DNA from: a phage
Sequence record: PZ379179.1
Length of the DNA: 39,736 nucleotides
Direction: 5' to 3' (one strand)
How positions within the stretch are numbered: position 1 is the stretch's first letter; every line of letters starts with the position of its first letter. This document shows, piece after piece, positions 33,349-39,736 of this stretch. A model generated the notes under the pieces. The model was not told the DNA's origin. It made no database searches and was given only the letters and a program-made list of their open reading frames with translations. The position numbers were made by a program, and so were the translations under genes.

Positions 33349-35529
33349 ATGTCCACGATTACACAATTCCCTTCAGGAAACACTCAGTACAGGATTGAGT
33401 TCGACTACCTAGCCAGAACGTTTGTTGTTGTTACGCTGGTGAATAGCTCTAACCCTACCCTGAACCGTGTACTGGAAGTTGGTCGAGATTACCGATTCCT
33501 TAATCCAACGATGATTGAGATGTTGGCTGACCAATCAGGTTTCGACATCGTTCGTATTCACCGTCAGACTGGAACTGACTTAGTGGTAGACTTCAGGAAT
33601 GGCTCAGTGTTGACGGCTAGTGACCTGACAAATTCAGAGCTTCAGGCTATCCATATTGCAGAAGAAGGTCGAGACCAAACGGTTGACTTAGCGAAGGAAT
33701 ATGCCGATGCTGCTGGTAGCTCTGCTGGCAACGCTAAGGATAGCGAGGACGAAGCACGCCGAATCGCTGCGAGTATCAAGGCAGCTGGTAAAATTGGCTA
33801 TATTACCCGTCGCTCCTTCGAGAAAGGCTTCAACGTTACAACATGGAACGAGGTCCTGCTATGGGAAGAGGATGGTGATTATTACCGCTGGGATGGTACA
33901 CTTCCAAAGAACGTTCCCGCTGGTTCAACTCCTGAATCATCTGGTGGTATTGGGCTGAGTGCGTGGGTTAGTGTTGGGGATGCGTCACTTAGAGCAAACC
34001 TGTCTGATAGTGATGGCGCTAAATACATAGGCAGTGGAGAAAGGACATTACTTGAGCACAGCAATGATGTTTTGCACTCAAAAGACTTTCCAACACTGCA
34101 GGCAGCTATAGATGCATCTTTGCAAAAAAATGATCTACTGGTGTCTCCTGGCAATTATACTGAAAAAGTTACTATTGGAAACGCGCAGTTAAAAGGTGTT
34201 GGCGGGGCCGCGGTACTAAAAACTCCGGCAGACTTTACAAACACTGTTCAGGTTAATTTAGCTACACCTCATTGGCAATTCCGCCATAGTGGTGGTTTTG
34301 CTATAGATGGTTCCGGGACAACCGGAGCCGTAGGTATTAGTTTTGACCCGTCAGACCAATATTCCGGACGTCATAATTTTAGTGATGTATACATCCACAA
34401 CATCAACAAGGCCCTTCAGAAGCCTTCCGGGAACATCGGCAATACTTGGAGAAATATTGGGATATCTACGTGTGATTGGGGGTATTACGCGATTAGTGGC
34501 TCAGAGACGCATTGCGGGGCCGATACCCTCTACAATATCCACTTCGATGGCATCTCCACCTATGCAGTCTATCTAGACGGCACTGTCGATAATGGCGGGG
34601 TGGGCGCATGGTGGCTTAAAGACTCCATTATTGAGGCTTCCGGAGGTGGCGGGATATACTTAAAAAGTAAATCGGGCGACTGTCCTACATCTCCATGCGG
34701 GGTATCCAATATATGGATGGAAGCTATCGCAACATCACCGGCTGTTCAGGTAGACGGCGTGGCGCAAAAACCGCGAGTTCTCAAGTTGGTAGACACAGCG
34801 ATATTCTTTGCTGAGTATTCTTATCTCAACAACATCGAGCTATCCAACTCCAACTTAGTAACTTATGGTTGCCGTTTTGACAACGCTGATGGCAATCAGG
34901 ATATTGTCGTGGATGCACAAAGTACCATTGTAGCCCATGACGTGTATTTAAACGGCAGTTCTGGAAAGGACGTTATTGTGGAGTCCGTAGCATCGCAATC
35001 TGCAACGATAGCTGCCACAAACTTATCTCTGAGGGGCAACTTAACAAGAGGGAGAGTATTTAATACGCCGACAGGGAATAAATTAATGGCTATCACATTT
35101 GACTCAGGTAGCCATTATTTTTCTGGCAGCGGCACCGTTAACGGTTCGACTGTATCTGACGGACTTCACTCCGCTACATGTACCGAATTTTCATTCCCCG
35201 GAGCCGGTTTATATGAAATGGGAGCGACAAGAACAGCCATTACATCCGGTAGATGGTACGTGTGGGGAGTTAACTCACGCCTACAATCTGGCTCGGCGGA
35301 TATTAGTATAACGTCAGGTATTACCATGGGTAGTGTTTACACAAAGCCGGGGGAGTGGATTAGCACTTTCGGTGTAGGAAAGGCATCTACCACTGGCACT
35401 GTAGCGCTATACGTTTCCACAGGAGGAGGTTCGGGAGCTACGGTCAGATTCAGTGACTTTTTCATCGCTGAGTTTACGACGCAAGCTCAGGCTTTAGCTT
35501 TCGCCAATTCAAGGATGTCGTTATCATAA
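33349..35529 (+). CDS. Tail fibre / tailspike: T7 gp17-like N-terminal anchor fused to a beta-helix (depolymerase-like) C-terminal domain
   Basis: 726 aa; N-terminus (EFDYLARTFVVVTLVN, DYRF, LVVDFRNGSVLTASDL, AIHIAEEGRDQTV) matches the T7 gp17 tail-attachment domain. From about nt 34000 codon usage becomes AT-rich and the protein shows Gly/Asn/Ser-rich repeats typical of right-handed beta-helix tailspikes. Confidence 0.9.
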   Translation: MSTITQFPSGNTQYRIEFDYLARTFVVVTLVNSSNPTLNRVLEVGRDYRFLNPTMIEMLADQSGFDIVRIHRQTGTDLVVDFRNGSVLTASDLTNSELQAIHIAEEGRDQTVDLAKEYADAAGSSAGNAKDSEDEARRIAASIKAAGKIGYITRRSFEKGFNVTTWNEVLLWEEDGDYYRWDGTLPKNVPAGSTPESSGGIGLSAWVSVGDASLRANLSDSDGAKYIGSGERTLLEHSNDVLHSKDFPTLQAAIDASLQKNDLLVSPGNYTEKVTIGNAQLKGVGGAAVLKTPADFTNTVQVNLATPHWQFRHSGGFAIDGSGTTGAVGISFDPSDQYSGRHNFSDVYIHNINKALQKPSGNIGNTWRNIGISTCDWGYYAISGSETHCGADTLYNIHFDGISTYAVYLDGTVDNGGVGAWWLKDSIIEASGGGGIYLKSKSGDCPTSPCGVSNIWMEAIATSPAVQVDGVAQKPRVLKLVDTAIFFAEYSYLNNIELSNSNLVTYGCRFDNADGNQDIVVDAQSTIVAHDVYLNGSSGKDVIVESVASQSATIAATNLSLRGNLTRGRVFNTPTGNKLMAITFDSGSHYFSGSGTVNGSTVSDGLHSATCTEFSFPGAGLYEMGATRTAITSGRWYVWGVNSRLQSGSADISITSGITMGSVYTKPGEWISTFGVGKASTTGTVALYVSTGGGSGATVRFSDFFIAEFTTQAQALAFANSRMSLS

Positions 35530-35673
35530 AAACAACCTCAGCCGAATCGGGTTATTTATCATCAGAACGGTATTGAATCATCGAAGGTTGTGGAGGTAGA
35601 GGCTAACTACACGTTGACCAACGTATGATAACAACTTTGGGTCACGGACGACCCGCTTTAAACTGGAGGTTTT

Positions 35674-35868
35674 ATGATTGAGTTAGACTTCAAGAATGAG
35701 GTCCTCAAAGCCTCGCCTATCGTCGGGACCGCTGCGGCTGATGGTGCCAGTCGGTTCTTCTTTGGGCTAACGCTCAACGAATGGTTCTACGTCGCTGCTA
35801 TCGCGTACACCGTGGTGCAGATTGGCGTCCTAATTTACAAGACGATTAAGAGCGGAGGTAAGACATGA
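35674..35868 (+). CDS. Class II holin (T7 gp17.5 homolog)
   Basis: 64 aa; FFGLTLNEWFYVAAIAYTVVQIG matches T7 holin FFGLSLNEWFYVAAIAYTVVQIG. Confidence 0.9.
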   Translation: MIELDFKNEVLKASPIVGTAAADGASRFFFGLTLNEWFYVAAIAYTVVQIGVLIYKTIKSGGKT

Positions 35869-36128
35869 CGCAGATGGACTTAGAGAAGTTCCTGTTAATG
35901 CTGGACACAGAACGTGCTAGACTAATGCTGCAAGACCTGCGGGATGACTCTAAGCGTTCGCCCCAGCTCTACAACGCCATTGAGAAGCTACTGGCTCGTC
36001 ACAACTTCGTGCTAAGCAAGGTGTCTGTTGACGAGAAGACGCTCGCTGATATGGAGGCCCTGAACGCAGAGTACGATAAGGTGCTCTCCGCTACGGAAGA
36101 TAATGACACAGGGTATGGTGTTCAATAA
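35865..36128 (+). CDS. Terminase small subunit / DNA maturation protein A (gp18-like)
   Basis: 87 aa ORF between holin and spanin with overlapping start; assigned by position and size. Confidence 0.65.
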   Translation: MTQMDLEKFLLMLDTERARLMLQDLRDDSKRSPQLYNAIEKLLARHNFVLSKVSVDEKTLADMEALNAEYDKVLSATEDNDTGYGVQ

Positions 36129-36130
36129 GT

Positions 36131-36171
36131 GTTAGACTCAAGGTCATCGTCAGGTGGCCTTTATGGTTAAC
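36131..36171 (+). ncRNA. Candidate RNase III processing hairpin (R18.5-like)
   Basis: GTTAGACTCAAGGTCATCGTCAGGTGGCCTTTATGGTTAAC, the third copy of the element at 6144 and 13375; at the position of T7 R18.5. Confidence 0.45.
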
Positions 36172-36224
36172 ACTAACTAGTGGAGGAGACTCTACGTGAA
36201 ATCTGATAAACCGGGAGGGCAACT

Positions 36225-36671
36225 ATGCTCGAATTTTTAAAGAGAGCGGCTCCGTGGTTACTTTCAGCAGTGATATTTGCTGGTGGCTACCACACCGCTA
36301 ACAATAAGTGGGAGGCTAAGGTCAATGCAGAATACACCTCGAATCTTAAGGCATCGGAGGATACAAGACTTGCTGTCCAAGCTGAAGTCAACAAAGTGTC
36401 CAAACGGTTTCAGGACGAAATGTCCTCGCTGGAAGGCAGCACTGATAGGATTATTGCTGACCTTCAGTCTGACAATAAGCGGTTGCGCATCCGAGTCAAA
36501 CCTACGAGTGGAACCACGCAAAGTGACGGTCGATGCGTCATTGATGGTTACGCCGAACTTGACGAACGAGATGCTAAACGTCTTATCGCCATCGGAGTGA
36601 AAGGAGACAAATGGATTAAGGCGCTTCAGGACACTGTGAGAGCCTTGCAGCAAGATAAGGAGGCCCAATGA
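36225..36671 (+). CDS. i-spanin, Rz-like (T7 gp18.5 homolog)
   Basis: 148 aa; MLEFLKRAAPWLL...LEGSTDRIIADLQSDNKRLRIRVK...LDERDAKRLIA...GDKWIKALQDTVRALQ matches T7 gp18.5; N-terminal TM segment. Confidence 0.9.
   Translation: MLEFLKRAAPWLLSAVIFAGGYHTANNKWEAKVNAEYTSNLKASEDTRLAVQAEVNKVSKRFQDEMSSLEGSTDRIIADLQSDNKRLRIRVKPTSGTTQSDGRCVIDGYAELDERDAKRLIAIGVKGDKWIKALQDTVRALQQDKEAQ
36325..36600 (+). CDS. o-spanin, Rz1-like lipoprotein embedded in the +1 frame of the i-spanin gene
   Basis: Track ORF 36277..36600 in an alternative frame inside gp18.5; contains a lipobox-like LTISGC after a hydrophobic stretch LIGLLLTFS. Start uncertain (first ATG at 36325). Confidence 0.45.
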   Translation: MQNTPRILRHRRIQDLLSKLKSTKCPNGFRTKCPRWKAALIGLLLTFSLTISGCASESNLRVEPRKVTVDASLMVTPNLTNEMLNVLSPSE

Positions 36672-37108
36672 TGCTCAGTGATTCGTATGTCTATGATGAG
36701 TCCAGTAAGTCTGGCCTGAAGTCCCTGCGTTCTGGTAAGGACGTGGGGTGTGTGGGAAACCACGGGTATTATCAGGTAGGAACTCGACGTCATGGACTCC
36801 TACTGGCCCATAGAGTCGTCTGGGAACTAACCCACGGTCCTATACCAGAAGGTATGGAGATTGACCATATTGACCGCTGCCGGACTAACAACAGGCTGGA
36901 CAACCTCCGGCTAGTTACTTCAAGCGAGAACTCCTGCAACACCTCAGGACATTCTGACTCAAAGACTGGAGTTAAGAACATATCGTTCCATCAGAATGGC
37001 TACGCTATCGAGGTCATGCGTAAGGGAGTCCGTATGCGAACAACACGTCCTACTTTAGAGGAGGCTATCTCTGTCCGGGACCTAATGCTGGAGGGACTCT
37101 ATGTCTAA
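36668..37108 (+). CDS. HNH homing-type endonuclease (copy B, paralog of 7708..8118)
   Basis: 146 aa; [13 protein letters not shown]...[41 protein letters not shown], about 60% identical to copy A across the core. Overlaps the gp18.5 stop and the terminase start. Confidence 0.8.
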
Positions 37109-38867
37109 GAAAACACCTGCTGAAAGACAGGCTGAAATGACCCAAAGGATGAGGGACGACTTCGTGTTCTTCATCTTCGTTCTCTGGAAAGCTCTTAGCC
37201 TTCCGGTTCCAACCCGCTGCCAGATAGATATGTGTAAGAAGCTGGCTGCTGGGGATAATCGCCGCTTCATCCTTCAGGCTTTCCGTGGTATTGGTAAGTC
37301 GTTTCTGACCTGTGGTTTCGTGGTCTGGAAGCTATGGAACAACCCAGACTTGAAGTTCATGATTGTGTCGGCCTCAAAGGAACGAGCTGATGCTAACTCC
37401 ATCTTCATCAAGCGAATCATCGACCTCATGCCTCAGCTTCAGGAACTCAAACCTAAGCAGGGACAGCGAGATGCGGTTATCAGCTTCGACGTTGGTCCCG
37501 CCAAGCCAGACCACTCACCTTCGGTTAAGTCCGTTGGTATCACTGGTCAGTTGACTGGTAGTCGTGCTGACATCCTGATTGCTGATGACGTGGAGGTTCC
37601 GAACAACTCAGCGACTCAGGCTGCCCGGGACCGTCTGTCAGAGCTTGTGAAAGAGTTCGACGCTATCCTGAAGCCTGGAGGTACAATCATCTATCTGGGT
37701 ACTCCTCAGAACGAGATGACCCTATACCGTGAGCTGGAAGGTCGTGGGTACACCACTACTATCTGGCCCGCTCGTTATCCACGCGACAGGAAGGACTGGC
37801 AGTCTTACGGCGACCGTCTGGCTCCTATGCTTCAGGCAGAGCTGGAAGAGGACCCTGAGTCCTTCTACTGGCGTCCGACTGATGAAGTACGCTTCGATGA
37901 TACGGACCTGAAGGAACGTGAGCTGTCCTACGGTAAAGCTGGCTTCGCTCTACAGTTCATGCTTAACCCTAACCTGAGTGATGCCGAGAAGTACCCTCTG
38001 AAGCTCCGTGACCTTATCGTAGCAGACTTGGACCCAGCGTCTAGCCCAATGGTCTACCAATGGCTTCCTAACCCTCAGAACAAGCGTGAGGACGTTCCTA
38101 ACGTTGGACTCATGGGTGACTCGTACCACACGTATCAGACTGTAGGCTCTGCCTTCAGCGCGTACACTCAGAAGATTCTGGTCATTGACCCTAGTGGTCG
38201 TGGTAAGGATGAGACTGGCTACGCTGTTCTGTACCAGCTCAACGGCTACATCTTCGTGATGGAAGCTGGTGGTATGCGCGGTGGGTATGAGGACTCTACG
38301 CTGGAAGCACTGGCTAAGATTGGTCGTAAGTGGAAGGTCAACGAATACGTCATTGAGGGTAACTTCGGTGATGGTATGTACCTTGAGCTATTCAAGCCTG
38401 TAGCGGCCCGTATACATCCTGCTGCTGTAACTGAAGTGAAGAGTAAGGGTCAGAAAGAACTCCGCATCTGTGACGTTCTGGAGCCTATCATGGGGTCTCA
38501 CCGACTTATCGTCAACGCTGCTGCTATCGTCCAAGACTACCAGTCGGCCTCTGATAAGGATGGTGTTCGTAACCCTATCTACTCTCTCTTCTACCAGATG
38601 ACACGTATCTCTCGTGAACGTGGAGCCTTGGCACACGATGACAGACTTGATGCTCTGGCTATCGGTGTACAGTTCTTCGTTGAGTCTATGGCTAAGGATG
38701 CCAACAAAGGCGAACGTGAAGTCACTGAGGAGTGGCTGGAGGAACAGATGGAGAACCCACGGAAAGGCTTCGAGTCCATCCACACTGAGTTCTGGGACAA
38801 TGGGGTCCGGGTGACTCACGATACGGACGACGAGCTGGGACTAGGGTCCTACGTTACGTTCCACTAG
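37101..38867 (+). CDS. Terminase large subunit / DNA maturation protein B (T7 gene 19 homolog)
   Basis: 588 aa; Walker A-like [10 protein letters not shown], ATPase and nuclease regions; position and size match T7 gp19. GGAGGGA RBS. Confidence 0.95.
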
Positions 38868-39575: not shown

Positions 39576-39736
39576 CCTCAAGTCTCCCCATAGGCCCTCT
39601 TTAAGTCAAGACCAAAGGCCCTACCCATAGACCTTCGGTCTAAACTTCAGGTCATTGACTCAAGGTTGACCAAAAGTCATGACGATAGGTCTAGGCTATG
39701 GCTTAGGGAAGGACGATAGGTAGGGACTATTGGTCT
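39576..39736. repeat. Right direct terminal repeat (161 bp)
   Basis: Identical to bases 1-161. Confidence 0.9.

Follow-up and report, generated by a model that had tools for sequence, protein, structure and literature searches.

In the phage genome analysed here (sequence record PZ379179.1; 39,736 nucleotides, the whole stretch being referred to as the window), translation of the o-spanin gene that is embedded in the i-spanin gene probably begins at a distal ATG at position 36325. Initiation at this codon would yield a 91-residue prolipoprotein with a 53-residue signal, and the N-terminal extension of this signal appears to be largely a passenger of the i-spanin reading frame. By homology, the open reading frame (ORF) is a T7 gene 18.7-type o-spanin, embedded in the gp18.5-type i-spanin gene of a T7-like (Kayfunavirus-like) phage.

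The embedded gene and its genome context

The window is a complete linear T7-like (Kayfunavirus-like) phage genome, since its first 150 nt are found again at 39576, forming a terminal direct repeat of approximately 161 bp (positions 1-161 and 39576-39736). Its nearest relatives are Kayfunavirus-like coliphages, among which Escherichia phage Zappy shows 95.5% identity across 35600-37200. The gene order is that of a T7-like lysis/packaging block, comprising the holin, the small terminase, the i-spanin with the embedded o-spanin, the HNH endonuclease, and the large terminase. The genes of this region are as follows:

33349-35529: 726-aa ORF at the position of T7 gene 17 (putative tail fibre, by position)
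35674-35868, + strand: class II holin of the T7 gp17.5 type (Pfam PF10746, E 3.7e-22; PHROG 920)
35865-36128: small terminase
36225-36671, + strand: i-spanin gene, homologue of T7 gp18.5, 148 aa (PHROG 1327 'Rz-like spanin', E 1.3e-59)
36668-37108: HNH endonuclease (PF13392, E 1.9e-21)
from 37101: large terminase

The lysis-cassette context expected of a two-component spanin is present, with the PF10746 holin located two genes upstream. The i-spanin possesses an N-terminal membrane helix (AAPWLLSAVIFAGGY) and scores 23.3 bits against Pfam Phage_lysis, slightly below the 25.4-bit cutoff. It is 42-53% identical to the i-spanins of enterobacterial, Yersinia, and Erwinia phages (T7, phiYeO3-12, KP32, and others) and 23-26% identical to those of two Pseudomonas phages. 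No match to either spanin was found among the NCBIfam models.

The gene for the HNH homing endonuclease (36668-37108) sits between the i-spanin and large terminase genes; its ATG overlaps the i-spanin stop codon (ATGA), and its 3′ end overlaps the start of the large terminase at 37101. Such a gene is missing from the spanin/terminase junction of T7, Ro45lw, and IME278, yet PRF-SP1 has an ORF at the same place, which suggests that the HNH gene is a mobile insertion. In addition, a stable hairpin (36128-36175) is present in the small terminase/i-spanin intergenic region. The fold of 36126-36226 has a z-score of -3.0, with none of 200 shuffles folding as well, and a putative RNase III site (R18.5) is annotated at the equivalent place in phiYeO3-12.

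The o-spanin ORF lies in the +1 frame of the i-spanin gene and extends from stop to stop over 36274-36600, with the stop codon TGA at 36598-36600. It encodes ...KCPRWKAALIGLLLTFSLTISGCASESN..., and the frame reads ...KCPRWK-AALIGLLLTFSLTISG-C-ASESN... through the lipobox. Its predicted parts and start signals are as follows:

36310-36315, + strand: Shine-Dalgarno sequence GGGAGG for the o-spanin, with a 9-nt spacer to ATG 36325
36325-36600, + strand: o-spanin ORF from the distal ATG, predicted 91-aa prolipoprotein plus stop (PF17531, PHROG 4306)
36325-36435, + strand: predicted basic N-terminal extension (n-region), 37 residues, MQNTPRILRHRRIQDLLSKLKSTKCPNGFRTKCPRWK, net charge +10
36356-36372, + strand: secondary start candidate, GGAGG 36356-36360 with TTG 36370 (76-aa precursor, 38-residue signal)
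36436-36486, + strand: hydrophobic core AALIGLLLTFSLT and lipobox ISG/C, with Cys codon TGC at 36484-36486
36484-36597, + strand: predicted mature o-spanin, 38 aa, CASESNLRVEPRKVTVDASLMVTPNLTNEMLNVLSPSE

The original prediction of an embedded Rz1-like o-spanin in the +1 frame of the i-spanin gene is borne out by the Pfam and PHROG matches and by the lysis-cassette context. The translated ORF scores 92.2 bits (E 1.9e-26) against Pfam PF17531 O_Spanin_T7, whose gathering cutoff is 25 bits, and matches PHROG 4306 with an E-value of 2.1e-37, residues 2-88 being aligned to profile positions 1-83 of 84. Homologues of the o-spanin were detected by tblastn in 1075 phage records and, together with the Pfam and PHROG scores, argue that the embedded ORF is not a product of chance. 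A 91-aa NCBI protein with 97% identity is named 'Rz1-like spanin outer membrane subunit'. In the protein database search, seven clusters matched the o-spanin; matches of this kind are probably scarce because gene callers seldom call embedded genes. The layout, in which 36325-36600 is contained within 36225-36671, is the same as in T7, phiYeO3-12, and Pharr.

The signal-like hydrophobic stretch and lipobox that had been noticed in this frame were likewise recovered. A stretch of 16 uncharged residues (mean Kyte-Doolittle hydropathy 1.9) is located ahead of the lipobox, and I-S-G-C matches the PROSITE-type pattern [LVI][ASTVI][GAS]C at the Cys codon 36484-36486. According to the +2 rule, which is established E. 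coli Lol biology, a lipoprotein without Asp after the lipidated Cys is sorted to the outer membrane; the predicted mature N-terminus here is C-A-S, with Ala and not Asp at +2. The VDASLMV...N(L/Y)T motif of the mature o-spanin is kept in all relatives, and the mature o-spanin of the window contains no further periplasmic Cys besides the lipidated one.

Start codons in the window and its relatives

ATG 36325 is, as was originally stated, the sole in-frame ATG upstream of the Cys codon. Its distance to Cys is 53 codons, and 37 residues precede the hydrophobic core, in agreement with the 'about 36' residues first given. The GGGAGG element that precedes it codes for W-E of the i-spanin and has a predicted duplex energy of -10.2 kcal/mol with the 16S rRNA 3′ end. 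Three other canonical in-frame starts, which the original prediction did not list, are TTG 36277, GTG 36283, and TTG 36370. TTG 36277 and GTG 36283 were rejected, as they are without a Shine-Dalgarno sequence (0 to -0.3 kcal/mol); they are also disfavoured by closure of the frame at these positions in close relatives, e.g., L008.

The PROSITE PS00013-type rule for lipoproteins places the lipidated Cys at residue 15-35, with Lys or Arg among the first seven residues. No canonical start in the window puts Cys in this interval, as it would be residue 54 from ATG 36325, residue 39 from TTG 36370, and residue 68-70 from the upstream GTG or TTG. The distance between ATG and lipobox, described at the outset as unusual, is indeed so for lipoproteins in general, and the position of Cys at residue 54 counts against ATG 36325 in that it breaks the usual rule (15-35). 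Only the non-canonical CTG 36442 puts Cys at residue 15, but the signal then has no Lys or Arg.

For the comparison, the window was combined with 110 related loci drawn from annotated phages and from viral contigs (111 in total), and the set was reduced to 92 distinct sequences in approximately 16 lineages. These include T7, T3/phiYeO3-12, KP32/Pharr, BA14-like, Erwinia, and fPS-53 phages, two Kayfunavirus groups, and Pseudomonas putida phages. A distal start was found 48-53 codons before Cys in all 92 distinct sequences, bar two Pseudomonas phages in which it is located at 37-38, and the codon is ATG throughout except for a single GTG. The distal start is accompanied by a Shine-Dalgarno sequence in 92/92 (median -11.7 kcal/mol, range -13.0 to -7.3), which is strong in nearly all of them. 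The N-terminus read from this start is typically M-S/N/Q-T-x-R, and the frame is open from the distal start to the lipobox in every relative examined. The same frame is closed upstream of the start in 12 of the 14 enterobacterial lineages, often only 0-2 codons away. This pattern of start and open frame is consistent over clades whose i-spanins have just 23-53% identity to that of the window.

In 86 of the 92 sequences, the distal ATG is supplied by the i-spanin Asn codon AAT together with the following G, and AAT is a rare Asn codon in the window genome (20% of Asn codons). When the i-spanin was given synonymous codons at genome frequencies, 15 of the 16 representative lineages kept both a start codon and a strong Shine-Dalgarno sequence in only 7-21% of trials, although these probabilities cannot simply be multiplied, as the lineages are phylogenetically related. 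The exception (L047) has a Shine-Dalgarno sequence of its own (-7.3) that is under the threshold used. The extension was stop-free after recoding in 5-55% of trials, depending on the lineage (7% for the window; P = 0.07), and it is actually stop-free in all 14 enterobacterial lineages, for each of which chance alone would give 0.07-0.55. As far as the aligned sequences can tell, this comparison shows that selection acts on the distal start, on its Shine-Dalgarno sequence, and on the open frame, because synonymous recoding of the i-spanin would often lose them. In the sole sequence with a GTG distal start (L060, IMGVR_UViG_2595698912_000001), the i-spanin Arg codon CGT replaces Asn AAT, and AGGAGGT is retained; such a change would be a start-preserving substitution, and it fits the use of this site for initiation.

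The long distance to the signal had been taken to imply a non-ATG start. This part of the original prediction did not hold: ATG 36325 has a strong Shine-Dalgarno sequence and an equivalent in 92/92 relatives, and a non-ATG start is not required given the conserved ATG, Shine-Dalgarno sequence, and open frame. There is also no need to invoke a +1 frameshift out of the i-spanin frame as the route to the o-spanin, an option that was considered, since the Shine-Dalgarno sequence and ATG are conserved. With regard to RNA structure near the start (36290-36400), the local fold is no better than that of shuffles (z = -0.19).

It is unlikely that the main start is TTG 36370, perhaps used alongside the ATG, with GGAGG 36356-36360 as its Shine-Dalgarno sequence and a 76-residue precursor with a 22-residue n-region as its product. 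In the window, this codon has a Shine-Dalgarno duplex of -9.5 kcal/mol and a 9-nt spacer. Its equivalent is the start given in SpaninDB (LLSKLKSTKC...) for the near-identical EcoDS1 protein and for CR44b, the 'o-spanin' of phage Penshu1 is annotated at 74 aa, a length that suggests a TTG-equivalent start, and an ATG occurs at about the same position (-37/-38) in two Pseudomonas phages and in L039. However, only 6 of the 92 sequences, all of them close relatives of the window, have an internal canonical start that is preceded by a good Shine-Dalgarno sequence (TTG at -38, i.e., 36370), and most genera have no start at the equivalent position. TTG at -38 is present in 13 distinct relatives; its Shine-Dalgarno sequence is kept in six of these and lost in the other seven through a synonymous GAG>GAA change, which argues that it is not under selection. 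In L001, for instance, GAG>GAA leaves the TTG with a duplex of -3.5 kcal/mol. In addition, TTG is a weaker initiator than ATG, the signal would still exceed the 15-35 rule, and the conserved ATG, its Shine-Dalgarno sequence, and 15 open upstream codons would be left unexplained. The SpaninDB entries for EcoDS1 and CR44b begin at the TTG that corresponds to 36370 (76 aa), yet they quote the Shine-Dalgarno sequence of the distal ATG, and the comparative evidence, drawn from the relatives, favours the distal ATG over this TTG. A Met located 31 codons before Cys in T7, L049, and L063 has a weak Shine-Dalgarno sequence (-2.1), and other genera have Thr, Ile, or Asn in its place.

The N-terminal extension and the export of the o-spanin

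With initiation at ATG 36325, served by GGGAGG 36310-36315, the signal would consist of the 37-residue basic n-region, the 16-residue core, and ISG/C. Following established lipoprotein and spanin biology, the n-region would remain in the cytoplasm while the core inserts via the Sec pathway; Cys54 would be lipidated by Lgt, signal peptidase II would cleave before Cys54, and Lnt would acylate the new N-terminus. The Lol system would take the 38-residue mature lipoprotein to the outer membrane, as Ala rather than Asp follows Cys. Finally, the C-terminus of the o-spanin would bind that of the i-spanin, and the complex would disrupt the outer membrane in the last step of lysis. The processed precursor that had been offered as another way to account for the distance would exist in a trivial sense only, as any prolipoprotein is cleaved at the lipobox; the leader removed here would simply have 53 residues. 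The far-upstream position of the start may reflect the placement of the family's ribosome-binding site within the part of the i-spanin gene that codes for the juxtamembrane K-W-x-x-x-V-x-N segment. A Tat signal was rejected, since R-R is found at residues 11-12, 26 residues ahead of the hydrophobic core.

Among the 92 sequences, the synonymous diversity of the i-spanin is 0.35 in the non-overlapped part before the o-spanin start and 0.40 after the o-spanin stop. It is 0.29 over the extension, 0.17 over the strongly constrained hydrophobic core and lipobox, and 0.14, the lowest value, over the mature o-spanin. The contrast of 0.29 with 0.35-0.40 outside the overlap and 0.14-0.17 in the core and mature region indicates that the amino-acid sequence of the extension is weakly constrained. 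This weak constraint counts against the distal start in so far as it would also be expected if the extension were untranslated; in that case, however, there would be no explanation for why the open frame, the ATG, and the Shine-Dalgarno sequence are conserved.

The net charge of the extension is +10 in the window and +6 to +11 elsewhere. Selection for positive charge was rejected, as recoding of the i-spanin yields an equal charge (mean 9.0 for the window, P = 0.31). The charge is, on this comparison, a by-product of the +1 reading of a coiled-coil gene rich in Lys, Glu, Ala, and Gln. Moreover, the length of the extension ranges from 21 to 37 residues, and sequence conservation between genera is poor. 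The simplest reading of these alignments is that the extension must stay stop-free and would otherwise be largely a passenger of the i-spanin frame.

A function for the extension itself, which might tune the export route or timing of the tiny precursor, in the manner of the N-terminal extension of some autotransporter signal peptides, or, as part of the cleaved 53-residue leader, act as a small membrane peptide in lysis, is very unlikely. It is true that the extension is retained in every lineage, that its N-terminal M-S-T-x-R motif recurs, and that, within the T7 clade and the second Kayfunavirus clade, i-spanin synonymous diversity over the extension is two to three times lower than in the non-overlapped parts. 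Nevertheless, the overall constraint is weak (0.29 versus 0.35-0.40), the charge comes free from the i-spanin frame, the length (21-37 residues) and sequence are not maintained between genera, and MSTxR overlaps the conserved N-E-Y of the i-spanin. It is likewise highly improbable that the conserved 32-37-residue basic extension would constitute a functional module, either as an export-delay or targeting device for a tiny lipoprotein exported post-translationally or as a 53-residue membrane-anchored peptide affecting the timing of lysis.

Initiation at a near-cognate codon just before the core (CTG 36442 or ATA 36445) is barely credible: it would place Cys at residue 14-15, and GGAGGG (-9.8 kcal/mol) is found 5-8 nt upstream in several genera (KP32-like, L047, L062), but the window has GGAAGG instead, with a duplex energy above the -6 kcal/mol listing threshold, the resulting 13-14-residue signal would have no charged n-region and indeed no Lys or Arg, CTG and ATA are very poor initiators in E. 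coli, and conservation of the distal start, of its Shine-Dalgarno sequence, and of the open frame would be left unexplained. GGAGGG comes from the codons for LEGSTD, the most conserved motif of the i-spanin, and therefore needs no explanation by the o-spanin. Among the relatives, it precedes the CTG/ATA codons, located 14 and 13 codons from Cys, in L019, L059, and L072 (KP32-like) as well as in L047 and L062 (-9.8 kcal/mol in each case), and the GGAAGG carried by the window (36430-36447) is weaker.

Prior annotation and known systems

The o-spanin gene and its long leader are already known, and the leader had previously been noted by the SpaninDB curators. What is new in the present analysis is the comparative support for the distal ATG, together with evidence, likewise comparative, suggesting that the extension is mostly a passenger. 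In the papers searched on gp18.7, o-spanins, and T7 ribosome profiling, no experimental mapping of the N-terminus or start was found for any gp18.7 precursor, which counts against the distal ATG. The long leader of T7-type o-spanins reveals no new kind of system, and the main value of the analysis lies in annotation, for which at least three start conventions are in use (83-91 aa from the distal ATG, 74-76 aa from TTG, and approximately 55-66 aa from starts nearer the signal). T7-type o-spanins are likely to be overlooked by lipoprotein predictors that allow for short signals only. If the distal start is true, lipoprotein signals of approximately 50 residues would be the norm across this widespread family. 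T7-type o-spanins also offer a clean example of how the ribosome-binding site of an embedded gene constrains synonymous sites of its host gene.

The lengths given in databases, which correspond to four or more different starts, are 91 aa (NCBI), 83 aa (T7), 74-76 aa (Penshu1 and EcoDS1), 55 aa (Stamos, which is L021), and 164 aa (KP32). The 164-aa annotation of KP32 (GQ413937, gene 41; L019) begins inside the small terminase gene. In many records, including those of Zappy, Ro45lw, PRF-SP1, BSP161, IME278, and Bosely, the o-spanin was left unannotated. The SpaninDB curators often picked downstream starts, such as the Met 31 codons before Cys for 13a, and reported that the 76-aa (TTG-start) sequence of the close relative EcoDS1 had no LipoP hit, a hit being obtained only once the start position was changed (PMC6139136); these entries count against the distal ATG.

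This enterobacterial T7-type lysis/packaging block, or its o-spanin, is also present in some records with Gram-positive labels (Staphylococcus phage MBBL139, Micrococcus luteus, and Staphylococcus argensis); the MBBL139 record aligns with 97% of the 1.6-kb query from the window, at 88.7% identity. These records are likely mislabelled or contaminated, because a spanin would find no outer membrane to disrupt in a Gram-positive host.

A close known counterpart is the o-spanin of T7 gene 18.7, which belongs to the same Pfam family, is likewise read in the +1 frame within its i-spanin gene (gene 18.5), and occupies the same site between the small and large terminase genes. The T7 spanins are among the experimentally tested embedded systems (Kongari 2018, PMC6139136). 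T7 18.7 is annotated from the homologous distal ATG with its Shine-Dalgarno sequence, giving 83 aa with Cys at residue 49, and it shares with the window the ISGC lipobox and the VD(A/S)SLMV...NLT motif of the mature protein. The signal core and mature region of the window protein are approximately 70% identical to those of T7. On the other hand, the extension is five residues longer in the window (Cys at 54), there is no counterpart of the internal T7 Met located 31 codons before Cys, and the spanin genes are followed by an HNH endonuclease gene that T7 lacks. The Kayfunavirus proteins EcoDS1 gp18.7 and CR44b are closer still, as their i-spanin and o-spanin are nearly identical to those of the window and the GGGAGG element is also present upstream; the mature EcoDS1 o-spanin is CASESKLRVEPRKVTVDASLMVTPNLTNEMLNVLSPSE, from which the window differs at one residue.

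For lambda Rz1, the prototype embedded o-spanin, a role in disrupting the outer membrane has likewise been proposed (Kongari 2018, PMC6139136). Like the o-spanin of the window, Rz1 is an outer-membrane lipoprotein with a short mature product, and its gene lies wholly inside the +1 frame of an i-spanin gene; however, the two proteins have no detectable sequence similarity and belong to different Pfam families. The signal of lambda Rz1 is of ordinary length (approximately 19 residues), and its start is located near the middle of Rz.

With regard to unusually long signals, the autotransporters EspP and Hbp have Sec signals of approximately 50 residues, in which an ordinary core follows an N-terminal extension of approximately 25-35 residues. 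The likeness to the o-spanin of the window, which combines a core and an extension in a similar manner, is an analogy only. EspP and Hbp are signal peptidase I substrates, their signals are borne by large proteins, and their extension has a conserved motif, whereas the window protein would be a 38-residue lipoprotein processed by signal peptidase II, with a poorly conserved extension, and no homology is expected between them.
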